From: a virus
DNA: 38,884 nt
Strand: one strand, 5' to 3'
UHGV virus genome: UHGV-0130462
The notes beneath the pieces were generated by a model that was not told the DNA's origin, made no database searches, and worked only from the letters and a program-made list of their open reading frames with translations. Below are positions 8,138 through 35,573 of the stretch, piece after piece. The position numbers were made by a program, and so were the translations under genes. Position 1 is the stretch's first letter; the number at the start of each line of letters is the position of its first letter.

Positions 8138-10354
8138 TTAGTTCCTGACTTCTGCTTGCGTTCCAGCACTTAAACTTTGTGAGATTGTAGAGACTGCCTT
8201 TTCGAACTTGCTTGTTCCTGCTGGAGTTCCTGCTAATCTCATCACCGCCTCTCTAACTGGTTTACTTTCATAAATGCGAGCTAGTGCACCATAAGTTCCA
8301 GCACCAATTGCGGTTGATGGTTTTATGGCTGCGCCTAGGCCAAGTATGAACGGAATTGCTTGCTGACCAGTCGGCGTTGTGACACCTGCTTTTGCGGCTT
8401 GTTTGGTTGCTTCTAAATACTTCTTCAAGCCATTTATATAAATAGCATCTTGACCTCTAAATGCTATCCCTGTTTGGTTTGACATGATATTTAGTTGCCT
8501 CAAGAACTGATCGGGAGAATCACCAGCTTTCTCAATCGCCTTACCAATAATGGCATTCCTCATTTGAGCGCGACCACGAGTGTCAACTGAGTTATATAAA
8601 CTCCTAATTTCAGATTTGTTTTTGCTAAATAAAATATTGTTAACCACCTCTGGCGTTAAATCACCTTTGGTTAAGATGCTCTTCAATCGAGTATTTAATA
8701 TTTTATTTGCTTCATCTGCATAGATAGCATTGGCTTGGTTATATTTGCGTAAAGCATCAGCACCTAAGTTTGATGATATTGCATCACTAGCGTCATCAGA
8801 CATGGCTTTATAAACTCTATTTATCGCAGCATCAGAGCGATTAGGCATAGCCATTCTCTCACCCTTGACGTCTTGTCTAAATTGGGTTCTTAAGTCTCTT
8901 AGTTGAGAAATATCAACGTTACCAGATGCAAGCTCATTCCTGTAAGACTGCAATTTTGAGATGGTCTGTGTGTCAGCAACCTCACCAAGTTTAGATAATT
9001 TAGAGATTTCGCTATCAATCTGATTTATTGCTCGGTTAGGTGTGATAGGCACACCAGATAACGCATTCTGGATTGACTCTAACCTTTCGCCAGCCGCCTG
9101 TTTTATTGTTGATGTTTTTCGCTTTAAACTCTCAACAACTTGGCTAGGATCGTACTCTCCAAACCTGTCTGCGAAATCACGAACAAGTTTACTCCTCGCC
9201 TCTTGTTGGTTTGAACGCAAACCTGCCGTACCAGCAAAAGGTATGTTTTCAGCAGCCCCTTGAGCTAACCTTCCAGTTTTTGATTGCGGAGGTACAACGT
9301 CAGTTGTGTATAAAGGAACATTATTCTGCTTAGCGAATTCTGACAGCTCAGATGCCTCTTGCGTTGGTTTTCCGGTTGCCACCCGATAACCACTATTAAT
9401 AAGCTTCTCCGCCGCTTTAAACCCACCTCCAAGCCCTGCTGATAATGCTGTTTGTAGCGGGTTAATATCGCTACCGCCCGCCATATTAACGGACGATTGT
9501 AGAGCCAAGTCTGTACCTGCTGATTTCGCAGTGGCACCTAGTACAGTTGATGCTCTTCCCGCTGGAGTAAATGCGGCCGCGTTCGCTATAAATGGCATGA
9601 TATCTTCAGCTGATAGACCAGGCTTATTTAATGCATATCGGCCAGATGGTAAGTCAACTAACAGGTTCCCCTTTTCATCTTGAGATACCTTGCCTCCCAT
9701 ATTCCCGATCACTTTTACAAAGTCGTTGTCGTTGCCGAACATTTGTACCCAAGCCGCTTTCATTGCGTCAGTATTGAATGCATTCATTTCTGGCGAAGAC
9801 ATGATCCCTTCTAGCCCTTGGACTTCAGGAGTCATCTTGCTTTCACCAGTGAAGGCATCTATTACGTTTTCACGGAAACTTTTGGCGTCCTCAGACGATT
9901 GCTGTAACCCTTGAGAAAGATTCTGGTTGGTTTGCTTCATGCCGGCGATATAACTATTTTCTGGCTGTGCTGGTTGAGTGCCTTGTTCTTGTTGTGCCGA
10001 TGCGTCGAACTGATCAAAAAAATTCCTTACTTGCGGTAGGTATTCTTCTGCTTGTTGATTATGTAAGCTTTCGGCATAAGCTGTAGCGTCTTCTGGTGTT
10101 GAAAACATACCTAAGTGCTTACCTGTTCTTAGGTAGTTATCAATAGCTTCGTCGTCAGACATGATCCTGCCATCATCACTAACTGTGGGTATTAACACCT
10201 CCATTCCATCAATGTTTGCCGACAAACTCCTAACGGTACTTATGCTACCGTCTTCATTTTTCACCACTGGCCGATTATGAATATCAATATTACCTTTCTC
10301 AATCATACCATTAGGTAATTTTTGCTCATCAAATTGATCAAAGAAATTAGCCAT
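8138..10354 (-). CDS. internal virion / DNA-ejection protein (P22 gp16 position), 738 aa
   Basis: Position and size in the conserved P22-like order gp7-gp20-gp16 upstream of tailspike. Confidence 0.5.
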   Translation of the reverse strand: MANFFDQFDEQKLPNGMIEKGNIDIHNRPVVKNEDGSISTVRSLSANIDGMEVLIPTVSDDGRIMSDDEAIDNYLRTGKHLGMFSTPEDATAYAESLHNQQAEEYLPQVRNFFDQFDASAQQEQGTQPAQPENSYIAGMKQTNQNLSQGLQQSSEDAKSFRENVIDAFTGESKMTPEVQGLEGIMSSPEMNAFNTDAMKAAWVQMFGNDNDFVKVIGNMGGKVSQDEKGNLLVDLPSGRYALNKPGLSAEDIMPFIANAAAFTPAGRASTVLGATAKSAGTDLALQSSVNMAGGSDINPLQTALSAGLGGGFKAAEKLINSGYRVATGKPTQEASELSEFAKQNNVPLYTTDVVPPQSKTGRLAQGAAENIPFAGTAGLRSNQQEARSKLVRDFADRFGEYDPSQVVESLKRKTSTIKQAAGERLESIQNALSGVPITPNRAINQIDSEISKLSKLGEVADTQTISKLQSYRNELASGNVDISQLRDLRTQFRQDVKGERMAMPNRSDAAINRVYKAMSDDASDAISSNLGADALRKYNQANAIYADEANKILNTRLKSILTKGDLTPEVVNNILFSKNKSEIRSLYNSVDTRGRAQMRNAIIGKAIEKAGDSPDQFLRQLNIMSNQTGIAFRGQDAIYINGLKKYLEATKQAAKAGVTTPTGQQAIPFILGLGAAIKPSTAIGAGTYGALARIYESKPVREAVMRLAGTPAGTSKFEKAVSTISQSLSAGTQAEVRN

Positions 10355-20453: not shown

Positions 20454-21989
20454 CTATCTCCTAATAGGTCTAATTGGGGCGGGAATTCTCTTTTCTTTAG
20501 GCTTTTTGATATCACGCAACTGCTTAGCGAAGCGCCTCATCATGTAGGCATAGCGAACAGCATCAAGCACATCATCGTTTGTTTTGACTATCTTCCCGTT
20601 TTCGTCACGGTGATATAGTCTGAACTCTTCAAAGAATGGCTCACAGGTATTAAATACTCTAAATCTGTTATCAAGCATCAGATCACGTAATTCATTAATA
20701 CCGGACTCTACTGAGTTACCACCCTCCGCAAATGTAGCGTGCTCCTTCAGCATCAAGAATCCAGCATCTGCATACTGAGTTTTTAGCTGCTCACCACCGC
20801 CTTTCTCGTGCTGATGACCATCATGAGGCCATGCTACAGGAACTTTATTAGCCCATGACTTAACAGCACCCCACGCTTGAACTGCTGTGTTTTCTGATTT
20901 CTTCCACACTCTAGCAAGATAAAAAACACCCTCATCTTTATCCCACCATAACTGGATATGAGCCTGCGGGTGATTCCAGCCGAAATCCTGACCATCGATA
21001 ATGTAAAAGTGATCAGGGCATTCGAAAGGCTGGCACTTAATAGACTCTTCGGGTATTTGGTAAATTCGACCGCTACCCATTGTTGGAATACCACGAGCAC
21101 GAGCCTCTCTTTCATGTTCAGGATATGAAGCAACAATCCGTTCTTTCTCTTCCTCGGTGTAGTGATCAGCATCATAGATAGTCATGTTGACTACCTTCTG
21201 TGCCTTACTCGGGTTCTTTAGAAATTTTGTTACGACATCAGACATACCCATCAGCGGGGTGAATGTTAGGATAGAGAACTGACCATATTTGTTGGTTCTA
21301 GTTAAACCCTCGCTATAAATACTGTATGGCGGCTCCTCATCGAACCACACCCCATGAACAGAATCACCTTGCCATCGTGCTCGACCTTGAGAATATGGCT
21401 TGAAGTAGCATATGGACATACCATCTTCAATCCCATCTTCCGTGTGATGTCTAACAAGAAGGTGGTCGACTAAGTTCGGGAAGAAAGGCGACTTCTTCCA
21501 GCTAATAATGTCCTCTTTCGGGATTGCTCCATAACCAGGATCATCATTCTCTTCGATGCGACCACATAGAATGCGCTGCGTCGTCTTCGTAACTGTCTCA
21601 TTAGTCTCGCCACCAACCCAGAATATAACTGGCTCATAGAATCTCTTCCCTTCCCATTCTTTTCCATACAGCCCATCATCTGGATAACCTTTTGTTCCTG
21701 GGTAGCGACCAGTAAGATGAAAAGCAACTTCGGCTCCACCAGTGAATGATTTGCCTAGTTGGTTTCCAGCCATAAAGCAGCGCTCAGGGTAATCATTCCC
21801 AGAGTCAATAAATTCTCTTTGCTTGTCATAGGGAGAGTATTCAAATAAGCGGTGCGTTTTCCTGTACTCTTCCTCTTCTTCCAATAACTCAAGCAATTCG
21901 TATTGTTCGTCGTCGCTCAGGTTATCAAGTATCTGATCCAGATTTTCCACGGTTGAATAACTCCTTAATTCGAGAGCGTCGCTTGTCAC
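20454..21989 (-). CDS. terL: terminase large subunit
   Basis: Follows terS; ATPase plus nuclease-type architecture; 511 aa. Confidence 0.85.
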
Positions 21990-22416
21990 GGTCTCCCTTA
22001 TCTGGAGTTACATCCTCGACCTCTTGTCTGTCTTTGAGACCTAAATCACGAGCAATAATATTTGCATTCAGCAAGTCAGCGGCTGCGCCTGAGAATTTCT
22101 GATCGTAGATAACTTTCTCAGCTCGCGTAGTGACCTCGATAAAATCTTCTCTGGCTCGATACAGTCGCCATGTGTCCTCATGTATATCCAAGAACAAACA
22201 AAGCCCTGATAGCGTCATAGCTCGCATTTTAGGCAATGTTTCTTTAGTCACTGCCCCTTGGAATGCAAACGCCTTAGTTTCATACAGTGGATTATCTTCA
22301 ACCCACTCGAAGTATTCACAACAAGCGTTCCATAAATCATCAGGAGACTCGAATATGGGTTTTCTTCCGTGACTACTTCTAGCCTCCCAGAATCTATTTC
22401 CTTTTGGTGCTGCCAT
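21925..22416 (-). CDS. terS: terminase small subunit, near-identical to P22 gp3
   Basis: [18 protein letters not shown]...KMRAMT...[30 protein letters not shown]...[25 protein letters not shown] matches P22 gp3 almost residue for residue. Confidence 0.95.
22126..22149 (-). other. candidate pac site inside terS
   Basis: Minus-strand GAAGATTTTATCGAGGTCACTACG at the REDFIEVTT codons; P22 pac lies at the equivalent position in gene 3 (sequence recalled from memory). Confidence 0.4.
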
Positions 22417-24627: not shown

Positions 24628-25395
24628 TTACTCTGGGGCTGGTAAGGCTAATATTATATCATTCAGATGAGGTAATGCTTCTTTATCTTTACCCTTAAAG
24701 TAAGTTATTGATTTATTCTTTATCCAGTTGTTAATTTCAAAATTAAACATTGTCATTAACTCATTTGGATAAAGCCTTGCCTTAACAACTGGTCTTCTTC
24801 CATCATCAAATTCATGCTCATAAACAGGAAATGAATCAGGATCATAACCTCTAGCCCTGAGAATATCGCTAAAGAATCTACCTAAAGATATGTCAGGCAT
24901 AAGTTTTTGTGGGAGCATATACCCTCTAGATTCTAATGGAGCTAATAACTTTAAAGTCATTTGATCCAGCATAGAAAAGTGAGTTGGCGGTATTTTTTCC
25001 CGATTAATTAAGTAACGCCTTACATGATATGGCATCGCTGATTGATGCTGTTTTGCACCAGACATCCAATCGAATACCCATTTTGAAACAAGAACAGCGA
25101 ACTTAGGTGAAGCCCATTGACCTAAGTTGATAGCTACCTGAGGATGAACCCAAGTGCCTTGCATTTGAGAAAAACCACCTCTAACTATTTGAATTAATTC
25201 CGATACCGGAATTCCGGTATCGCTCGATAATTCAGCAACAAATGCTTTTGTTGAGTTATTATCAAGGTAATGATTGAGCCTCTTCCCAGCAGCTTGACAC
25301 ATTGCAGTAGCATTTATGTATCCATCATGAGCTCTTTGTGAAATAACTACATTGTTTTCCTGCCTAGAAATTAATGGCAATTCTAATTGGTTCAT
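24628..25395 (-). CDS. KilA-N domain protein with a C-terminal domain of unknown function
   Basis: N-terminal region (...HDGYINATAMCQAAGKRLNHYL...TKAFVAEL...) fits the KilA-N pattern; AAGGAG 5 nt upstream of ATG 25395 (ORF track start 25410 is TTG). Confidence 0.7.
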   Translation of the reverse strand: MNQLELPLISRQENNVVISQRAHDGYINATAMCQAAGKRLNHYLDNNSTKAFVAELSSDTGIPVSELIQIVRGGFSQMQGTWVHPQVAINLGQWASPKFAVLVSKWVFDWMSGAKQHQSAMPYHVRRYLINREKIPPTHFSMLDQMTLKLLAPLESRGYMLPQKLMPDISLGRFFSDILRARGYDPDSFPVYEHEFDDGRRPVVKARLYPNELMTMFNFEINNWIKNKSITYFKGKDKEALPHLNDIILALPAPE

Positions 25396-25470
25396 TACAT
25401 CTCCTTGCAAAAATCCAAATTACATTTTATGACAAGAAGATATAAAGCTAAAGGCAAATTAATATATACG

Positions 25471-25713: not shown

Positions 25714-26469
25714 TTAATTTGTTACCTTTTTTAGTATGTAATCTGCGTTACTTTCTCCTTTTTCACACTCAACCGCCAATGACTCATAAAATTTACTAAC
25801 TGAACGCTTCCATTGATCAATCGTAATCCCTAAATGAGACACAGCCTGAAAAGCCTTTGATGCAGGTATTCGCTCGTAACCACGACCAGAACAACGCTTA
25901 CAAGGCATACTGACAGCCTCACCGGTTAACCTTAGCGTTTCTTTGTCTATTGCCATACCACGCCCTTTACAGTCATTGCACGCACAAGAAACATAACCTT
26001 TACCGTTACACTTATCACAAGCGCATGACTCGGTGTCATCAATAATGCGAACTTCTTTACCAAAGACTTTTTTAACCTTAATCGCCTTTACCTTAAAACC
26101 TGATCCATTGCACTTTACGCACTCAATAACACTTGATGCCGATCTGCAATAATCTGCATAAGCGAATTTTGCGAGTATTTGCATTACCTTTCGCTTAACA
26201 TTCATATCGAGCTTGCGTAAGGCTGGAACCTTATCGCAATGATTCAATGCATGCCGAGTTAAAAGTTGTATCGCTTTCACTTTGTCATTCTGGCTTATCT
26301 CCATCTTTCCCGAGAACGCAGAAAAGCCGAATGACTCTTTACTCTGACACATACCAAAAGCGCCCATAACATCAGTACCGGTTAATCTATCTGGCGATGT
26401 TGAGCTAGGCGCATCTGATATTGATGTTGTTTTGGCGAAGTGATATTTAACAGCGCTTTCTAGGTTCAT
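25714..26469 (-). CDS. putative late-gene antiterminator (Q-like) with a DnaJ-type zinc finger
   Basis: Four CxxCxGxG repeats (CVKCNGSG, CDKCNGKG, CNDCKGRG, CKRCSGRG); sits between the nin genes and the late promoter/terminator; GGAGG upstream. Confidence 0.5.
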   Translation of the reverse strand: MNLESAVKYHFAKTTSISDAPSSTSPDRLTGTDVMGAFGMCQSKESFGFSAFSGKMEISQNDKVKAIQLLTRHALNHCDKVPALRKLDMNVKRKVMQILAKFAYADYCRSASSVIECVKCNGSGFKVKAIKVKKVFGKEVRIIDDTESCACDKCNGKGYVSCACNDCKGRGMAIDKETLRLTGEAVSMPCKRCSGRGYERIPASKAFQAVSHLGITIDQWKRSVSKFYESLAVECEKGESNADYILKKVTN

Positions 26470-26669
26470 CTCGCCTCCGGTAATACTGTGTGATTATGGC
26501 AGTCGTAGCGTGTGCTAAATGACTTTCTGAGTAATGCCTCTCTCGACATGCCGACCTCCTGCCTAACCGATAAGAAGCCGTTTCTTTTTTGAGTGACGAC
26601 ATGATGATGCTTTGTTTGTTGCCTAAGCCACCTAGCCTCTTCAATGGCTGCGCGGATATCAGTAAACAT
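26466..26669 (-). CDS. hypothetical nin-region protein (NinH position)
   Basis: Start and stop overlap the neighbouring genes (ATGA / TAATG overlaps). Confidence 0.4.
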   Translation of the reverse strand: MFTDIRAAIEEARWLRQQTKHHHVVTQKRNGFLSVRQEVGMSREALLRKSFSTRYDCHNHTVLPEAR

Positions 26670-27289
26670 TAAGCCACCTCCGAATATTGATCCTTTCGCC
26701 TTTTCTCATACCAACGGGCCCTACGAGTGAATATTGATTTCATTCGCTTGAGATATTCGATGTCGAATTTACGGACCGTGTTATCGTGCTCTAAACGAAT
26801 TACTCGCTCTTCGCCGATTTTATTGATGAGATTAATGCGATACGGGATGAGATTTCCTGACAGGTCCCTATTGCAGTGAACACAGCCAGCGTGAATATTG
26901 AGTAAATTAAATCTTAAATGACTTGCCGAACCCCTTGATCTGTAATGACTAGCATCTACGGACCCACCTCTTACTCCATAATTTAAGGGCCGACCGCAAG
27001 CGATGCATGGCTGACCATAGTCTCGCCAAAATATGTATTTATTTACTGCCGCTTGGGCCTCTTTGTTCCAGTCTGATTTTGTCTTTAACTTTTCCTTTCT
27101 GGCCCGCAATATTTTTCTTTCCTCAGATAAACGTTTCTTACGGCCCTTTTCTTCGGTCCGTTTAATTTCATTTGAGGCGAATTTTATTGCGCAGGATGTG
27201 GAACAAACTTTTTGGGTGGATAGGTAGGGAATGAATTCTTTGTTGCAGACTTTACAGGTTTTGAGCTTCGGCTTTTTAGCCTTCGCCAC
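26669..27289 (-). CDS. ninG: NinG / Rap recombination protein
   Basis: N-terminal CKVC...CSTSC zinc motif, basic stretch, and CIACGR...HYRSRG...LRFN..NIHAGCVHCN..LSGNL.PYR pattern as in lambda NinG; GTG start. Confidence 0.85.
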   Translation of the reverse strand: MAKAKKPKLKTCKVCNKEFIPYLSTQKVCSTSCAIKFASNEIKRTEEKGRKKRLSEERKILRARKEKLKTKSDWNKEAQAAVNKYIFWRDYGQPCIACGRPLNYGVRGGSVDASHYRSRGSASHLRFNLLNIHAGCVHCNRDLSGNLIPYRINLINKIGEERVIRLEHDNTVRKFDIEYLKRMKSIFTRRARWYEKRRKDQYSEVA

Positions 27290-27404
27290 TCTTTTCCTCC
27301 TTGATTTTTTCCATCACTTCCAAATGAGCGTATTCATCAGCACACTGGGCACACACATAAATTTCATCATCTGTTAGCTGTCTATTGCATGATCGGCAGT
27401 TCAT
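27276..27404 (-). CDS. ninF: NinF-like small zinc-binding protein (42 aa)
   Basis: [10 protein letters not shown]...[10 protein letters not shown] resembles lambda NinF; ATG overlaps the upstream stop (ATGA); not in the ORF track. Confidence 0.5.
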
Positions 27405-28078
27405 TTGATTTGCCTCATAGTTAGCCCATAACCAAACACAGCTCCAGTATCGATGTATTCCTGATTAGCGCGCTTTTCGATACCTTTAATCATTGGTGTG
27501 TGACCAAATAGAAATAGGTCCGCACCTTTAATCTCACGGACGTTATCGTCACCAATGCGCTCACGGCTCCAAATCACATACTGCTCATCTACTGGTTTGC
27601 CGAACTCGTATTCATCGGATGGATAATCAGCATGTGCAATGACTGCCTTTTTTTCATCTGTATTTACTTCGATAATAAAGGGAAGTTTCTCTGCTCTGGC
27701 TAAGCAGGCGCGGGATAAAATCTCTTCCTCATAATTTTGCAGAAAAAACCAATTACCACCGTTGTATAGCCAGTTATTGACATCCCCACCATTAAACAAG
27801 GCATCAATAGCCATTTGCTCATGATTACCACGCACCGCTCTAAACCATTTTTCATTAATCAGGTCTAGGCATTCGACATTCTGATCACCCCTATCTATTA
27901 GGTCACCAACTGAAATCAATAAATCTTTTTCTTTATCAAAATCAATTCGATACATATTCCTTTTTAATAGATTGAAGCATCCGTGAATATCACCAACCAC
28001 CCAAATATGGCGATATTGATCACCATCGATTCTGAGGTAAATTCCGTTTCTTTCTTCTGTCATTTCTCTAACTCCCAC
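27401..28078 (-). CDS. Ser/Thr protein phosphatase (lambda NinI / PP-lambda family)
   Basis: Calcineurin-like motifs GDIHG, GDLIDRG and GNHE. Confidence 0.9.
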
Positions 28079-28278
28079 TCCGCAAGTGTAATAACAAGCA
28101 TCGGATTACTGCTGCTTTCAATCTTCCGCATTGCTTCATACGCTAAATGCCCTTTAAATTTGCGCTTTAATAGCCCTGCACACTTCCTGACGGCGTTATT
28201 AGATCTATGGATAGACCAACATAGCTTGAGTGTTGTTAATGCGCTCATAAACGCTTCTGCTTCGTTTTTCATCTCCAC
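28060..28278 (-). CDS. hypothetical nin-region protein
   Basis: ORF track; overlapping arrangement with neighbours. Confidence 0.4.
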
Positions 28279-28466
28279 ATCCTATTAATCATTGCTCGTG
28301 GTGTTGGCTTGAGCCATTTTTGGGTGGGTAGGTTGACTGATACATCGAAATTTTTCGGGTTAATATTGAGCATTTTGACTGGGGAATAACCTTGTCGCTT
28401 GTAATGCTCACAAAGTCTTTCTGCTTCTTCGTAAGTGAGAAGCTTGTGTATGTGAGGTTCTTTCAT
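28269..28466 (-). CDS. hypothetical nin-region protein
   Basis: ORF track; overlapping arrangement with neighbours. Confidence 0.4.
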   Translation of the reverse strand: MKEPHIHKLLTYEEAERLCEHYKRQGYSPVKMLNINPKNFDVSVNLPTQKWLKPTPRAMINRMWR

Positions 28467-28912
28467 CTCTCTTGCTGCTCCTTGAGTTTCATGTATTCGC
28501 TGTCGTTTGGGATGATGATTGGAATGCCTTTTTCAATACACCATGCTTCGTGTTTCTCCATCATGTAGAGCATCCGTGCTTTATCCATCTTGCGGGTTTT
28601 CTCACGCTCTCCGTTTTCATCACGACCTAGCCAGTGACCAACAAAATACTCATGCGTTTCTTCGTTAGTGATTGGCTTTGATAGAACAACCTCACCAGCG
28701 CCATTTTTAATATCAATGACAACGCCACGCGCACGCAGCCAATCGCCTGTGGTTTCTATCCACATACGCCATGTTTTGTTCATTGGTATTGTTCTGAGTT
28801 CACGCCATTCGGTGATTTTGATTCGGTAACGCTTACCAGTTTCTGTTACTTCTGAGAGAGTTTTGAAAATGCCTTTTAGATTGGATTTATGGAGACAGAT
28901 ATCATCCGTCAA
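28463..28912 (-). CDS. ninB: NinB / Orf-family recombination mediator (putative)
   Basis: Position at the head of the nin region and a ...NKTWRMW... motif reminiscent of lambda NinB (DQNRKLW). Confidence 0.5.
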   Translation of the reverse strand: MTDDICLHKSNLKGIFKTLSEVTETGKRYRIKITEWRELRTIPMNKTWRMWIETTGDWLRARGVVIDIKNGAGEVVLSKPITNEETHEYFVGHWLGRDENGEREKTRKMDKARMLYMMEKHEAWCIEKGIPIIIPNDSEYMKLKEQQER

Positions 28913-28935
28913 TTAAACCTCCATATCACTCACTG

Positions 28936-29328
28936 TTAGCTCTCCTGCTGATACTGTTCAAACCAGAAAACAACCGGTTTATCGACCAATTCAATCAATC
29001 CAAACCTTTCAGCCGTTCTGAAATTAACAGATGATTTTCTAGCCCTATCAGCTTGTTTTTTGATTTCTTCTCGAAACACTTCAATGCTATAAACAGATTT
29101 AAATAGATTGCAGGGTGCGCATGCAGGAACAAGGTTGTCCTCTGTGTCTTTTTCAGGATTAAAACACTCTCCTGTTACTACTATTTTTCCGTTAATTCTG
29201 TCGATTTTTCTGTAAATAGGCTCTACGTGATCCGCGTGCCAACCTTTTTCTGGTAACTCACAACCACAGTAAGCGCATCGACCACCGAATAGCATCCGTA
29301 GATTTTCACGTTGTTTTTTAGTCATCAT
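28936..29328 (-). CDS. HNH endonuclease
   Basis: CAYCGC...GWHADHVEP...CAPCN layout. Confidence 0.8.
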   Translation of the reverse strand: MMTKKQRENLRMLFGGRCAYCGCELPEKGWHADHVEPIYRKIDRINGKIVVTGECFNPEKDTEDNLVPACAPCNLFKSVYSIEVFREEIKKQADRARKSSVNFRTAERFGLIELVDKPVVFWFEQYQQES

Positions 29329-29570
29329 TCACCCTCTGGCATTGGTGGGAGCGGCAGGTCTTTGATGTACATCCAGTAGTCGAATGTTTCCAATGGATCC
29401 GAATCATAGTCGCTGTTATTGTGTGGTATCCATCTAAGTTCTTCGCAGTCAACACCACATGAAATTAGCTCGTATGTTATGTTCTGGATATGTTCGCCAT
29501 AGATAACAATTACCGCCTCGCCTTCGGTTGGTAATTTGTCCTTTGTCTTAACCCAATTAGTTCCCTGCAT
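29325..29570 (-). CDS. DUF551-like phage protein
   Basis: NWVKTKDKLPTEGE...VIVIY...DYWMYIKDLPLPP pattern typical of DUF551. Confidence 0.45.
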   Translation of the reverse strand: MQGTNWVKTKDKLPTEGEAVIVIYGEHIQNITYELISCGVDCEELRWIPHNNSDYDSDPLETFDYWMYIKDLPLPPMPEGE

Positions 29571-29850
29571 TAGATGCCTCCTCCCCTATCAGTGGCTCAA
29601 ATGAAACCAACTCAAATGTAATTTCACGATGGTAATCGTAATAATCATTAGTTGGTTTTAGCGTATAGACCCCCTCACCCTGAAAGTAATCTTCTCCGGT
29701 CAAAACCATTGATATTTCTTCTTGAAACTCTCGAATGTCAGTTGCGTCAAAATCACCATGGCAACCCTTTAAATAGACCTCGTTTTCGTCATCAACAGCG
29801 TGATGAATTACAACAATAGTTCCAAATGGGATTTCCTTTTGCTTGTTCAT
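29557..29850 (-). CDS. hypothetical protein
   Basis: ORF track. Confidence 0.4.
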   Translation of the reverse strand: MNKQKEIPFGTIVVIHHAVDDENEVYLKGCHGDFDATDIREFQEEISMVLTGEDYFQGEGVYTLKPTNDYYDYHREITFELVSFEPLIGEEASNAGN

Positions 29851-29869
29851 CTAAAAATCCTCTTGCGTG

Positions 29870-31240
29870 TTAAACGTTGGCACCTTGGAATCGCCGTTGT
29901 TGTGGTCTGCTACTTTGTTGACAGATGCTAGATGCTTGAGCCTGATCGGTGTCAAGAAAATGACCGTTTTTAAATAATTGATAGACAGTACCCAGTTTCC
30001 CAAATCGGTTTTTTGTCACAATTATTTCTGCGTAAGCTGCTGCGGGGGAGTTCTCGTTATAGACTGCATCGCGGTAAAGCATGATGATGCTATCTGCATC
30101 TTGCTCTACGCTTCCTGAGTCTCTTAAATCCGCATTGGTAGGTCGTTTGTTAGGTCTCTTTTCAACATCACGAGATAACTGGCTTAGTGAAATAACAGGC
30201 GTTCTGATGTTTTTAGCCAACCCTTTCAGCGTTGCTGAAATATGAGCAATAGCCAAATCGTTACGCTCTGCGCGAGGTTTCTCAATCAACCCTAAGTAAT
30301 CAACCATGATTAACGATAATTCAGGGTGACGTTTCTTGTGTCGTGTTGAAATTGCAGTGATTTGTTCAACGGTTAACTTACTGGCATCGACAACCCAAAC
30401 ATTCAGTCCAAGTAAATTACCTGCCCCCATTGATACCCTGCCCCAATCTTCGTCACTCATACGAGATGGGTTTCTCAATGCGCTAACAGATAGATTTGCG
30501 GATCCTGCAATCTGACGCTCTACGATTTGCTGGGAGTCCATTTCCATGGAGAAAATTAAAACTCCTTTTTTGGTGTCAGATCCGATAACATTTTGAGAGG
30601 CAACACCTTCTGTAATTTTCAGCGCGATTTCTGTTTTACCCATTCCTGGTCGAGCGGCAATGATGACCAGGTCAACAGGATTGATACCTCCCATAATTTC
30701 ATCTAATTCGCGGATCCCCGTTTTTAACGTGTCCGACTCCTCGCCTTTGTTAACACGCTCTTGTAAAACTTCCGTGTAATCTTCGATTAACGATGACACA
30801 TGGACTGGTGCGATATCACCTTTCGAAGAATGCATATCAGATGCCTGAGCAAGAAAACTTTCCATTGCCTCACTGGCTTGCTCAATAGTTCCGTTCTCAA
30901 TCACACCGCGCACAGAATCCATTAACTGGATCATAGCTCTACGGTTATGATTATCGGTCACCATCTTGGCATAGCCTTTCAGGTTGGCTGCGCTAGGGCA
31001 ATCCTTGGCTGTTTGAATGATGTTTGCTAGGTGTTCACTTCCCATTCCTTCAGCAACCATCATCATATCGATGACACCGCGAGACTTGGCTTGTTTTTGA
31101 ATAACTTGATAGGCTTCTCGATAGAACCTAACTGAAAATGATTCAGGCTCTAAAGTGGCCAAAACATCCGAGGCATCAGGTGTTAACCCTGAAATTAACA
31201 AACCGCCAATAACACTTGCTTCAAATTCCGTATTGATCAC
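29870..31240 (-). CDS. replicative DNA helicase (DnaB-like; P22 gp12 position)
   Basis: Walker [10 protein letters not shown] and DnaB C-terminal domain motifs; follows the O-like initiator. Confidence 0.9.
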
Positions 31241-32077
31241 TTAAAACCCCCTGTCAGCAAATTTACCTTCTCGAACACCCGTCAACGTTGTTTCTCTTAG
31301 CAGATAATCAATGTCAGCCGTCCAGCCTGTGTCGTTTTCACCAAAATAAAATGGCTTAGCCATTCGAACAAAAGCTCTTACGTAGGCTCGCCAACCATCA
31401 ACGTTTGCCGTTGCAAGGTTTTTGATTATCTTCCTGATCCGTGTTTTACGTTTCTCGTTAGCTTCCACAGCGTGAGGTAATCTGTCGCCAACCTCCTCGT
31501 TGTAGGCATTGAGATATTCATCGTAGTTAATTGGAGTTGATTTTCTCTTGGTAGGTTTTACCGATTCTCCCCCTTTCACCTCGTGAGGGGTAAGGGGTGT
31601 ATTACTTTCTTTCTTTTCTTTTGTAATAGTTTCTTTTGTGTGTCCCTGTTTTGGTGACAGCGCTGTCACGCTTTTGGTGACACTTTTTGTCACTGTTTTG
31701 GTGACAATGACACCGTTTTGGTGACACTCATGAATATCCCACTCAGTTAGGTTTTTATTAGGCCCTATCGCCATACCAACTTTCACTATAACTTTCATAG
31801 CGATAAGCTCATTTTTTGCCTTGTTAACTTTCTGCCTTGGTAGTCTAGTTAACTCTGCCAACTGACTGTCTGATATGCGGTCTGTTTTCTTATTAAACCC
31901 ATAAGTTTTCCTGCAAATAGCATGAGCAACTTTTGCCTGATTCTTTGTTAGGTTTGCGCCAATTAATTCTTCGTAAAGCTCATTAGCTAATTTTGTATAG
32001 CCATTATCAAGATCTGCCACGTTAGGCCTCTCTTGCCGTCGTTGATTACCAAAATCTGCATATGCAACATTACTCAT
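31241..32077 (-). CDS. replication initiator, lambda O-like
   Basis: N-terminus (...NVADLDNGYTKLANELYEEL...LTKNQAKVAHAICRKTYGFNKKTDRISDSQLAELT...) parallels the lambda O N-terminal domain; iteron array inside the gene. Confidence 0.85.
   Translation of the reverse strand: MSNVAYADFGNQRRQERPNVADLDNGYTKLANELYEELIGANLTKNQAKVAHAICRKTYGFNKKTDRISDSQLAELTRLPRQKVNKAKNELIAMKVIVKVGMAIGPNKNLTEWDIHECHQNGVIVTKTVTKSVTKSVTALSPKQGHTKETITKEKKESNTPLTPHEVKGGESVKPTKRKSTPINYDEYLNAYNEEVGDRLPHAVEANEKRKTRIRKIIKNLATANVDGWRAYVRAFVRMAKPFYFGENDTGWTADIDYLLRETTLTGVREGKFADRGF
31649..31726. repeat. origin iterons: four direct TTTTGGTGACA repeats at 20-24 bp spacing inside the O-like gene, next to an AT-rich tract
   Basis: Read directly at 31649, 31672, 31696 and 31716; partial inverted TGTCAC/GTGACA elements. 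Confidence 0.75.
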
Positions 32078-32246
32078 GCGATCCTCCTAGTAATTTCTCA
32101 CGATGCTCATTTCTCAATTTTGCATCTTCGAATGCTTCCTTTAGACGTTTACTTCCTAACGGTGTCACTTCTCGTAACGTCTTATCTCGCATGATGTTTT
32201 TATGCACTTCGTGACGATTAAACCAATGATTAACTTTCTTCTTCAT
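32070..32246 (-). CDS. hypothetical small basic protein (58 aa) between cII-like and O
   Basis: ATG 32246; its stop overlaps the O start (ATGAGTAA); below the ORF-track cutoff. Confidence 0.35.
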   Translation of the reverse strand: MKKKVNHWFNRHEVHKNIMRDKTLREVTPLGSKRLKEAFEDAKLRNEHREKLLGGSHE

Positions 32247-32279
32247 GGTATAATTTCCTTATTCCTAAGCTGTATCAGC

Positions 32280-32306
32280 AAAAGGAAAGCTCAAAATCAG
32301 CTTCCC
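32280..32306 (-). terminator. rho-independent terminator downstream of the cII-like gene
   Basis: Minus-strand RNA: GGGAAGCU-GAUUUUG-AGCUUUCC followed by a U run. Confidence 0.45.
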
Positions 32307-32363
32307 TTTAATGCTGGTTATTGATACAGTGTATTTGTTAGTTTAAATGGTTAAGTCCATTTG

Positions 32364-32690
32364 TTAATGCGCCTCGGTTGCTCCAACAATCGGGGCGTTT
32401 TCTTTTGTTCTCACCTGAGAAAGTTCACCTATTTGTTTCCATAAAAAGCGGTATTCTTCCTCTGATATTTTCCTCTCTCCTTCCATCACAAAATCGACTA
32501 TCCCTGATGCGACTAATGTCTCGCATATCTCAGGATATTTTTCAGTTCTGCGTAGAATGGTTGAGTCATGAACACCTAATGTTTTAGCGACCACCGACTG
32601 AGTTTTATTTCTCAATGCCTGTAATGCCGAAGCCATCAAGTGATTTGAAATGAATTTATTAAATTGTTTGCGTGTATTTGTGTATTCCAT
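32364..32690 (-). CDS. CII-like transcriptional activator (HTH)
   Basis: Position after cro and HTH segment ALRNKTQSVVAKTLGVHDSTILR. Confidence 0.5.
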   Translation of the reverse strand: MEYTNTRKQFNKFISNHLMASALQALRNKTQSVVAKTLGVHDSTILRRTEKYPEICETLVASGIVDFVMEGERKISEEEYRFLWKQIGELSQVRTKENAPIVGATEAH

Positions 32691-32779
32691 GGTTTAATTT
32701 CCTTATTAAATTACTTCTCGTTAGAGAACAGCAGTAATGATCCGTGGCTCATTCCATATGAGCGGATTGTTGATATGTT

Positions 32780-32813
32780 CCACAATGGCGGAACCTAAAT
32801 TGTGAAAAGAGCG
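32780..32813 (-). promoter_or_regulatory. nutR: boxA (CGCTCTTTT) plus boxB-like hairpin (CCGCCAUUGUGG)
   Basis: Minus strand, just downstream of the cro stop; same two elements recur at nutL. Confidence 0.5.
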
Positions 32814-32819
32814 GGTAAA

Positions 32820-33038
32820 TCAGTGAAAAATGTCTGGGTATAAAACTTCTTTAGATAATCCAGTAGCCATCATAAATTCACGCATTTTTGTTCTTGGTAG
32901 AGAACCACCGTTCTTTTTGATGGCTGAAATTCGCTGAGGTGTTAAGCCAACCTTTTTCGCGAGGTCTTTTTGCTTTCCACCTACTGCACTTACTGCAATA
33001 TCAATTGGTGTTTGCTTTTCCATTAAGTATAACTCCAT
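32820..33038 (-). CDS. cro: Cro-like repressor
   Basis: 72-aa HTH protein (QKDLAKKVGLTPQRISAIK) divergent from cI across the operator region. Confidence 0.6.
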   Translation of the reverse strand: MELYLMEKQTPIDIAVSAVGGKQKDLAKKVGLTPQRISAIKKNGGSLPRTKMREFMMATGLSKEVLYPDIFH

Positions 33039-33121: not shown

Positions 33122-33141
33122 CTTTGTGTTCGGAGGTTCGC

Positions 33142-33852
33142 ATGGAACTTAGAGATCGAATTAATTACTTGCTAAAGGCTGAAAATCTAAAGCAAAAGGA
33201 CTTAGCTGAGAAACTAAATGCCAGTGCGCAAACAGTTAATAACTGGCTAAAAAGAAACTCAATTAGCAGGGAAGCAGCGCAACAGATTAGTGATATTTTT
33301 GGTTATTCACTTGACTGGTTACTGATTGGCAAAGGTGAGCCGAAAATAAAAAATATTGGACAATCAGAAATACCTGATGAAAACAAATTTATTCCTCTTC
33401 GAGTTTGGGATAGTCTAACACCTCTTGAGGCAGATGAAGTTGAGGTTCCTTTTTTGAAGGATATAGAATTTGCTTGTGGTGATGGATCGTTTACAGACAC
33501 TGATTACAACGGATTTAAACTAAGGTTTTCTAAAGCAACAATGCGGAGGATCGGAGCCAACAGTGACGGAGAAGGTGTGATTTGCTTCCCAGCCAGAGGG
33601 GATAGCATGGAGCCTGTTATATTTAATGGTACTACTGTTGCTGTAAACACTAGAGATAAGAAAATTGTTGATGGTAAAATTTATGCGATAAATCAAGGTG
33701 GGCTAAAAAGAGTGAAAATGCTTCATCAAACCACGCCTAAAACATTAACAATTCGTAGCTTCAATAAAATTGACTACCCAGACGAAGAAGTGCCAATAGA
33801 GGCAATAGAGATCATCGGTAGAGTTTTCTGGTGGTCTGTATTAGACGTCTAA
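33142..33852 (+). CDS. cI: CI-type prophage repressor (HTH plus LexA-like S24 autopeptidase domain)
   Basis: N-terminal HTH (LKQKDLAEKLNASAQTVNNWL) and C-terminal GDSMEP ... LKRVK catalytic Ser/Lys; GGAGG 6 nt upstream of ATG 33142. Confidence 0.9.
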   Translation: MELRDRINYLLKAENLKQKDLAEKLNASAQTVNNWLKRNSISREAAQQISDIFGYSLDWLLIGKGEPKIKNIGQSEIPDENKFIPLRVWDSLTPLEADEVEVPFLKDIEFACGDGSFTDTDYNGFKLRFSKATMRRIGANSDGEGVICFPARGDSMEPVIFNGTTVAVNTRDKKIVDGKIYAINQGGLKRVKMLHQTTPKTLTIRSFNKIDYPDEEVPIEAIEIIGRVFWWSVLDV

Positions 33853-34961: not shown

Positions 34962-35573
34962 TCATTTATTAAAATATCCAGTGAATTGCCTAACGCATTC
35001 TGAGTAATAATCGGGATTAATTATAAACTCATTGGTATGTCTCATACTCAAATGCTTTGACGAATCATGGAGAATGTCTTTATCCAACAGTGAGTTAATA
35101 ACAGGGTCATTTCTTTTCCCGCCTAGAAATTCCTTTCCAGTGTCAATGAACATGGCTAGGTAATCCTTTTCATCCTCAGAAAGGCTTGAAATAACAAATG
35201 ATATTTTGTGCTGATTATTACGCTTTATTGATTTTAACTTTACGGAATTAATTATACCAAAAGTTAATAAATATATTCTTTTTGTTATATCTGAAAGAAA
35301 GAAGCTAACAGGAATAATAAAAAGAACAGCATTGATATTATTTACCGAGCCAAAAATTGGCTTTGCGTTAAGAAAATCAAAGAATGATTCAGGTAAAAAT
35401 AACCACAAACTGACCAGATATAGCAACCACACCATAGTAAACCTCAGTGAAATTTGGTTTTTCAAATAGGCAATCACTGCCTCAATCCAATTCGGCATGG
35501 TTGATAATCTCTTATTCTGTAGGGGTAAGTGGATTATAGCCGATTTCTCGATGTAGGGGTACACGAGAACCAC
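34962..35573 (-). CDS. AT-rich membrane protein (two N-terminal TM helices plus soluble C-terminal domain), transcribed against the pL operon; superinfection-exclusion or abortive-infection candidate
   Basis: ORF track; hydrophobic segments FTMVWLLYLVSLWLFL and INAVLFIIPVSFFL; convergent with the upstream plus-strand gene, divergent from the next; strongly AT-rich. An alternative GTG start at 35564 has a GAGGTG site upstream. Confidence 0.6.
   Translation of the reverse strand: MVLVYPYIEKSAIIHLPLQNKRLSTMPNWIEAVIAYLKNQISLRFTMVWLLYLVSLWLFLPESFFDFLNAKPIFGSVNNINAVLFIIPVSFFLSDITKRIYLLTFGIINSVKLKSIKRNNQHKISFVISSLSEDEKDYLAMFIDTGKEFLGGKRNDPVINSLLDKDILHDSSKHLSMRHTNEFIINPDYYSECVRQFTGYFNK

Follow-up and report, generated by a model that had tools for sequence, protein, structure and literature searches.

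The locus examined here raises the question of what an HNH endonuclease gene does among the nin genes of a phage rather than beside its terminase genes, and whether it moved there by homing. The gene lies at 28936–29328 in DNA from the UHGV virus genome UHGV-0130462; the window is the whole stretch of 38,884 nucleotides that was analysed. The preliminary description proposed a homing or accessory nuclease and regarded the position as unusual. The best explanation that we can offer is a composite one, namely, an active HNH nuclease gene that forms an optional cassette of the ninR region, that is exchanged by recombination at linkers, and that encodes a nickase or nuclease of short specificity which confers a homing-like advantage or aids recombination and is not a terminase cofactor. 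We consider the chances of this composite to be about even. In any case, neither the gene nor its location is of a new kind. The gene and the elements that delimit it are as follows.

28936–29328, minus strand: HNH nuclease gene, 130 amino acids, ATG start (open reading frame list, Pfam and PHROG)
28948–29322, minus strand: HNH-specific part of the cassette, DNA absent from relatives with the same flanks
29323–29351, minus strand: 5' linker GCTCCCACCAATGCCAGAGGGTGAATGATG, 29 nucleotides, comprising the end of a DUF551-family gene (PPMPEGE and stop), the Shine-Dalgarno-like GAGGGTGA and an ATGA overlap
28925–28947, minus strand: 3' linker CAGGAGAGCTAACAGTGAGTGA(T), 22–23 nucleotides, comprising the last three HNH codons, TAA and an 11-nucleotide spacer

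At the level of sequence, the open reading frame (ORF) was confirmed as a real and intact gene for a small zinc-finger HNH nuclease. Its product matched Pfam HNH (PF01844) with 27.2 bits, above the gathering cut-off of 21.4, and PHROG 2118 'HNH endonuclease' with E = 7e-55. The motif reads C18-x2-C21 ... H31-A-D33-H34 ... N65 ... C70-x2-C73-N74, and its positions were invariant in two alignments of 24 and 30 homologues (57–96% identity). These positions include the [CxxC]2 zinc site (C18, C21, C70 and C73) and the catalytic residues D33-H34, N65 and N74, which were also found in 80 of the 80 IMG/VR loci fetched. The ORF was intact with its motifs in all 80 loci, with no pseudogene among them; the loci were the best-scoring tblastn matches, a sample biased towards intact copies. 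A C-terminal extension of approximately 55 amino acids (SSVNFRTAERFGL...PVVFWFE) is conserved. The ratio of nonsynonymous to synonymous substitution rates (dN/dS) was 0.05–0.10 against seven alleles, and the protein was shown by these comparisons to be under strong purifying selection. The G+C content of the gene (0.38–0.41) is similar to that of its neighbours and, thus, gives no compositional hint of a recent foreign origin. A BLASTP comparison with the NinG of the same phage revealed no meaningful similarity. Membership in the T4 endonuclease VII family was considered and rejected: its sole support came from PHROG families labelled 'endonuclease VII' (2e-12 and 1e-6), and PF02945 (Endonuclease_7) was not matched even at E ≤ 10. 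Most likely, the product is an active zinc-finger nuclease of the beta-beta-alpha-Me (HNH) type that is expressed early.

The surroundings of the gene were compared with related phages locus by locus using blastn (compared sequences are designated L001 and so on). In the relatives L187, L234, L241, L240, L160 and L155, which have the same flanks, homology to the window ends at 29322/29323 and restarts at 28947/28945, which defines 28948–29322 as the HNH-specific DNA. The HNH-less L187, L234 and L241 contain the 5' linker, an unrelated cassette of 62, 75 or 118 amino acids and then the 3' linker, which is continuous with the window-type allele of ninB (28947–28470, 91–92% identity). L240, L160 and L155 showed the same arrangement with NinB at 95–98%, and overall this NinB allele was present at 91–98% nucleotide identity behind other cassettes in HNH-less contigs. 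In the HNH-positive L001, L003, L055, L056 and L059, homology was confined to 28926/28941–29348/29360 and the flanks were unrelated; window positions 28926–29360 were 93% identical to Proteus phage vB_BPM-V3, and 28941–29356 were 90% identical to 'Salmonella phage MS2 LVA'. The replication genes in this comparison had a different history, with 97% identity to L001. The HNH homology of L057 and L058 was limited to 28948–29324.

The 5' linker is unique within the window, where the number of matches expected by chance is 0, and its counterpart at the 5' edge in relatives is a 26–29-nucleotide sequence, (GCT)CCCACCAATGCCAGAGGGTGAATGATG. It was 100% identical in the HNH-less L240 and L160, was common to L002, L004, L009, L010 and L063, in which other genes come next, and preceded wholly different genes in the HNH-less phages Brookers and PSTCR7lys and in prophages of P. 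penneri and P. alcalifaciens. An exact 20-mer of this linker was present in at least 120 IMG/VR contigs, and the following counts refer to the 120 that were listed. The DUF551-family gene was the upstream gene in 114 of them. At least 21 unrelated cassette families followed the linker, including Lar-like zinc-ribbon, DNA methyltransferase, small membrane and further DUF551 cassettes; alternatively, NinB followed directly. The window-type HNH gene came next in only three contigs, and any HNH gene was found in the slot in seven, counting divergent alleles as a second or third cassette. The HNH alleles in linker-bearing contigs span 48–100% identity, with the divergent ones at 48–72%.

The 3' linker was 100% identical in the HNH-less L240, L155 and L010 (in L010, the copy of CAGGAGAGCTAACAGTGAGTGA is at 9510–9531) and, in 91 of the same 120 contigs, followed the 5' linker within 2.5 kb. 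It is read in two frames, as ...QES with a TAA stop in the HNH and other cassettes and as ...NSE with a later TGA stop in a Lar-like cassette, and is, therefore, a feature of the DNA and not a protein motif. In some phages, the 3' linker supplies the GTG start of the next gene. L140 and L236 carry a divergent HNH allele with a GTG start directly at a variant of this linker. A 17-codon mini-ORF, MKGTTLTELIPPMPEGE followed by a stop, joins the N terminus of another small gene to the C-terminal linker of the DUF551-family gene (L004, approximately 2917–2970; L056, approximately 6930–6980); judging from this structure, it is probably a recombination scar at the linker.

In the sequences compared, the signature at this locus is that of cassettes replacing one another between two linkers of a generic kind, and not that of insertion into a conserved target; the insertion-site signature that the preliminary description had sought against HNH-less relatives was not what the comparison yielded. 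The finding that it had named as a refutation of its own view, presence of the gene at this position in all relatives with conserved flanks, was not obtained because many relatives are without it. The alignments showed the HNH gene to be an optional cassette that most close relatives lack and that is, therefore, dispensable. Cassette swapping of this kind is ordinary for P22-like phages. The idea of linkers, short conserved sequences at gene boundaries, reportedly goes back to Susskind and Botstein. The mosaic ninR of lambdoid phages likewise consists of gene-sized cassettes exchanged at short conserved junctions, and the epsilon34 paper called the nin region 'typically mosaic'. The difference here lies in the specific linkers of Proteus/Providencia-type phages, namely, a 29-nucleotide end of a DUF551-family gene and a 23-nucleotide element read in two frames. 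We infer that the cassette moves among phage genomes by homologous recombination at the linkers and not by site-specific insertion, and the recombination functions of the phages (NinB/Orf and NinG/Rap) may take part.

The activity of the enzyme was considered by comparison with characterised proteins. Ten phage HNH enzymes of 121–130 amino acids with [CxxC]2 are site- and strand-specific nickases with specificities of 3–7 bp (PMC3592412). By analogy with these enzymes, the window HNH protein most likely depends on a metal and acts as a nickase or nuclease whose sequence specificity is short or low. It is similar to N.phiGamma, N.phi105 and Gmet_0936/4H9D (Xu & Gupta 2013, PMC3592412) in size (120–130 amino acids) and in motif order (CxxC...DH...N...CxxC-N/H), and nicking with short specificity is by analogy the likely common activity. 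However, N.phiGamma-type nickases are encoded next to cos and the terminase genes, whereas the window gene belongs to the nin region, which is an early one, and its phage packages by the headful mechanism; the similarity is also marginal (E 0.02–0.07), and the SSVNFRTAERFGL...VVFWFE extension has no counterpart in them. Breaks made by the HNH enzyme in the DNA of a co-resident phage, a prophage or the host would be repaired by recombination. This repair would give the cassette a homing-like advantage by gene conversion and/or feed recombination-dependent replication.

Several points weigh against this explanation. The AlphaFold2 model of the protein was poor, with a mean predicted local distance difference test (pLDDT) score of 64.8, a predicted template modelling (pTM) score of 0.42 and values below 50 at both motif halves; the input was a 30-sequence alignment, and none of the homologues available for it falls below 60% identity. 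A Foldseek search of this low-pLDDT model against the PDB returned noise only (best E 4.3). The closest PDB sequence match, the Geobacter HNH protein 4H9D, was marginal with the single sequence and with a profile (E 0.02–0.07), although the alignment takes in both motif halves. Mobility needs no nuclease activity, as all other cassettes of the slot move without a nuclease. Purifying selection and the lack of pseudogenes among the 80 loci might just as well reflect a benefit to the phage instead of selfish spread. The diversity of neighbours around the HNH family is equalled by that around the control genes NinB, NinG and CI; it was, therefore, rejected as a sign of nuclease-driven mobility and reflects the region and not the nuclease. 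Our literature searches on the HNH family in nin or ea regions found no characterised member.

The genes around the cassette are given below.

31241–32077, minus strand: replication protein O
29870–31240, minus strand: DnaB-type helicase
between DnaB and the 81-amino-acid ORF, minus strand: ORF of 97 amino acids
29325–29570, minus strand: ORF of 81 amino acids, divergent DUF551-family member, with a 4-nucleotide overlap with the HNH start
28463–28912, minus strand: NinB/Orf (recombination mediator), TTG start (PHROG 72, E 9.6e-21; NCBIfam NF007281, 175.5 bits)
between NinB and the NinI-like phosphatase, minus strand: ORFs of 65 and 72 amino acids
27401–28078, minus strand: NinI-like phosphatase
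between the NinI-like phosphatase and NinG, minus strand: ORF of 42 amino acids
26669–27289, minus strand: NinG/Rap
25714–26469, minus strand: Q
21925–22416: terS, approximately 6.5 kb away from the HNH gene

By its gene content, the source element is a P22-like temperate phage, a Proteus-type prophage with headful packaging. The window encodes P22 portal and coat proteins, a gp3-type TerS (GP3_package), a Terminase_6N/6C TerL, an integrase, CI and SieB. The database entries most closely related to it are Proteus and Providencia phages, and two IMG/VR contigs are approximately 99.9% identical to it across the HNH region. The gene order DnaB, 81-amino-acid ORF, HNH and NinB, followed further on by NinG and Q, places the HNH gene in the nin region. 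The ORFs from Q to terS encode a BstA-like protein, a holin, an endolysin, Rz and two proteins without a known function, and there is no HNH gene beside the terminase genes. The preliminary description was, thus, correct in placing an HNH endonuclease in the nin region and not beside the terminase, as judged by the ORF coordinates, the Pfam and PHROG matches, the gene order and the ORFs between Q and terS.

An ATGA stop/start overlap joins the HNH gene to the upstream DUF551-family gene, and 23 nucleotides separate its stop from the start of NinB, with GGAGG ahead of the latter. A promoter and terminator scan revealed nothing above chance for the HNH gene (4 promoter-like sites versus 13.4 in shuffled sequence), and no terminator was detected between the gene and its neighbours. 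One weak promoter-like site is located at 29432–29403 within the DUF551-family gene. An Rfam scan of 26000–33000 gave no matches. The overlap, the short spacer with GGAGG and the lack of an own promoter or terminator indicate that the HNH gene is an expressed part of the early-right operon; on this sequence evidence, it was shown to belong to the long early-right (PR) operon, with predicted translational coupling to the DUF551-family gene.

The naming of the upstream neighbour as a DUF551 protein held for family membership, but not for the score of the protein itself. The 81-amino-acid ORF reached 14.2 bits against DUF551 (PF04448; E 0.086), for which the cut-off is 22. Among 24 proteins with conserved N and C termini like its own, 20 have a DUF551 match (best E 3.9e-16), and we, therefore, regard it as a divergent member of this family. 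The ends of this gene (N terminus MQGTNWVK.S..LP, C terminus HWMPLPPMPEGE) are approximately 100% identical at the nucleotide level in at least 114 IMG/VR contigs, with junctions in the window at 29547–29582 and 29323–29351. The middle of the protein is unalignable, with 44 variants less than 80% similar and lengths of 63–159 amino acids. From these alignments, the gene looks like an exchangeable or fast-evolving core between fixed ends.

The HNH family comprises 1051 proteins at E ≤ 1e-5, mostly from Enterobacterales genomes, and the names given by the sources are almost always 'HNH endonuclease'. Homologues were found in 184 phage records. Three phages, the P22-like g341c and BIS08P22 and the Stx phage ArgO145, have the gene in their ea/PL region, and HK225 has two HNH genes in its nin region. 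Further homologues belong to replication modules: the one in eiAU is flanked by the genes for DNA polymerase and helicase, and those in Sasha and Carvaje adjoin ParB-like and methyltransferase genes. The Bas77 and HC6 homologues (62–63% identity) close a series of small early genes that lies upstream of terS/terL. Among 76 IMG/VR loci, an integrase was downstream in 22, which points to the ea/PL region; at least 21 were in the nin region, three were between NinG and Q, and NinB was directly downstream of the HNH gene in three. The usual spacing to both neighbours is a 4-nucleotide overlap. The upstream neighbours in 77 cases fell into 43 distinct families, and the downstream neighbours in 75 cases fell into 37. 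Neither a constant partner nor an immunity gene was found among the neighbours, which vary and include Ead/Ea22-like, dATP/dGTP pyrophosphohydrolase, DUF4014, DUF7279 and RusA proteins. On the basis of these loci, what sets the family apart is that it is spread over several parts of the genome and extends to virulent phages that are unrelated, and a nin-region position is normal for it. The ninR maps of Curtis et al. (2014, PMC4118853) already include HNH boxes. The premise that this position is unusual was, therefore, mistaken, as members are normally in ea/PL, nin or replication modules. Two individual records may be mentioned. The IMG/VR contigs L057 and L058 carry an 88%-identical HNH allele (7001–7387 of L058) directly upstream of a RusA Holliday-junction resolvase and share no linkers with the window. 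L003 (MZ614453.1, UNVERIFIED, 'Salmonella phage MS2 LVA') contains nin-region segments, including the HNH gene, that are 90–96% identical to the window; it may be labelled with the wrong host, or the module may have passed from one genus to another.

Under classical homing, a free-standing endonuclease would cut HNH-less phages at a long and specific recognition site, at or beside the slot, and its gene would be copied in by double-strand-break repair. Phage HNH enzymes of this kind include the T4 MobE type and SPO1 I-HmuI, the nicking paradigm. The window gene has in common with them a sporadic presence among close relatives (it is absent from L002, L004, L009 and L010, in keeping with the seven of 120 linker contigs), ORF-precise edges in at least three contexts, a location among genes for DNA metabolism and a conserved active site, and its function appears to be conserved (dN/dS and intact ORFs as above). 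The position of the eiAU homologue also favours homing, since the neighbourhood of polymerase and helicase genes is a typical place for homing endonuclease genes. A clean case comes from Escherichia phage HC6, in which the HNH protein is 62.5% identical to that of the window. Compared with Salmonella phage Seszw_1 (Skatevirus), HC6 showed a precise presence/absence difference of 463 bp (L259 2466–2928 versus L260 1827–1835), with flanks 92% identical and approximately 9 bp shared at the junction. The HC6 region was matched by 178 phage records; beyond five near-identical ones, those listed cover 58–66% of it in three or four pieces, and the absence of the HNH gene was aligned in one record, Seszw_1. 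This difference indicates that the HNH family is dispensable even near terminase genes. Conversion of an HNH-minus phage driven by an HNH enzyme was discussed by Xu and Gupta (PMC3592412).

Other observations argue against homing. In the window lineage, the slot between both linkers was never seen empty; it held other cassettes, or NinB came directly after the 5' linker, so that there is no empty target and no single cognate site. Homology among HNH-positive phages stops 10–30 bp outside the ORF, and, hence, no co-conversion tracts were found. The HNH alleles of the slot are only 48–72% identical, approximately 40 different neighbour families adjoin the HNH family, and the gene is coupled into an operon with no own promoter found. 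The protein is much smaller than free-standing homing endonucleases and has no recognisable extra DNA-binding module; a length of 130 amino acids leaves only the extension of approximately 55 for the recognition of a long site. No homing event was demonstrable, and the sequence evidence favours an ordinary exchange of cassettes, mediated by the linkers, within a mosaic nin region. We consider classical homing to be unlikely. In the phrase 'homing or accessory', the second term stands, given the sporadic occurrence; the first gained no support from the comparison, which gave neither a clean insertion nor co-conversion and a variety of neighbours no greater than that of NinB, NinG and CI.

Somewhat less likely still, in our opinion, is a recombination or host-takeover partner of NinB/Orf, a split version of an Orf–HNH fusion that nicks DNA for recombinase loading or inhibits host replication. 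The HNH gene is directly upstream of NinB with the 23-nucleotide spacer, early expression is predicted, selection is purifying, and the HNH gene of L057 and L058 directly precedes RusA. Orf/NinB–HNH fusions (DUF968) exist (PMC4118853), and Gp16 of the S. aureus phage PhiNM1, with NinB-like and HNH domains, is expressed early, nicks DNA in a RecA-dependent manner and benefits the phage (PMC12817073). In both settings, HNH and NinB functions are encoded side by side in an early region. However, the two are separate genes here, NinB is the direct neighbour in only three of the 76 loci, and an ea/PL location, far from NinB, is no rarer for the family. Moreover, relatives without the HNH gene have the same NinB allele. 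Gp16 belongs to a CxxC/CxxH subclass and to phages of Gram-positive hosts. No similarity to DUF968 or Gp16 turned up, although no search was aimed at it, and the NCBIfam and PADLOC matches cover the generic HNH core.

A weapon in conflicts between genetic elements, which degrades the DNA of the host, a competing phage or a satellite or serves in superinfection exclusion or anti-defence, appears improbable. The slot also accommodates Lar-like (restriction-alleviation-type) and DNA methyltransferase cassettes, the prophage encodes BstA-like and SieB-like proteins, and weak PADLOC matches to the PtuB-type HNH protein of the Septu defence system were obtained (best E 1.5e-5). However, NCBIfam and PADLOC yielded sub-threshold matches only (retron HNH, IscB and PtuB), all to the generic HNH core, and an assignment to a defence system was rejected for this reason; no partner ATPase is present. 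A gene of the lytic early operon with no own promoter found should be silent in the lysogen, and no immunity or inhibitor gene is consistently adjacent.

It is very improbable that the HNH enzyme nicks the linkers, or another motif repeated at the boundaries, and thereby drives the exchange of neighbouring cassettes together with its own spread in an integron-like manner. The least probable reading is a packaging cofactor encoded away from the terminase genes that stimulates terminase cutting like HK97 gp74, the terminase-associated packaging HNH protein (Kala et al. 2014, as cited in PMC12817073): small [CxxC]2 HNH enzymes next to cos are common (PMC3592412), Bas77- and HC6-type siphoviruses have a 62–63% identical homologue a few small genes upstream of terS/terL, and gp74 is likewise a small phage HNH protein with a zinc site, but BLASTP gave no alignment with gp74 at E ≤ 100, the genomic position differs, the window phage has P22-type headful machinery in place of HK97-type packaging genes and no HNH gene beside terS, the HNH gene is dispensable and missing from most close relatives that share these packaging genes, and the HC6-lineage gene is precisely absent from Seszw_1, with the listed matching records that are not near-identical covering 58–66% of the HC6 region. 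The view of the gene as an accessory nuclease and not a packaging HNH is, thus, well founded.

This gene should, therefore, be annotated as an accessory HNH nuclease of the early region and not as a packaging HNH. The family is abundant, with over 1000 proteins from prophages of enterobacteria and from several virulent siphoviruses, and one nicking-site assay would annotate many genes. With its two linkers, the slot of Proteus/Providencia-type P22-like phages clearly illustrates how linkers mediate mosaicism, and it could be used as a natural place for insertions when these phages are engineered. If true, the linker-nicking possibility would make the HNH enzyme an engine of modular shuffling in the nin-region slot.

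Further features of the window were noted outside the cassette. A 110-bp island at 27297–27405, which contains the 42-amino-acid ORF (PHROG 672), was 90–96% identical in nearly all related phages, and the DNA on either side differs; by this pattern, it is a further conserved junction or mini-gene of the nin region. A SieB-like superinfection-exclusion protein is encoded at 34962–35573 on the minus strand (Pfam SieB, E 4e-13), near the CI repressor gene (33124–33852). Between Q and the holin gene, a protein of 260 amino acids (24628–25410, minus strand) matched PHROG 6287 'BstA abortive infection system, replication inhibitor' with E 9e-48 and is likely a prophage-encoded defence gene product.

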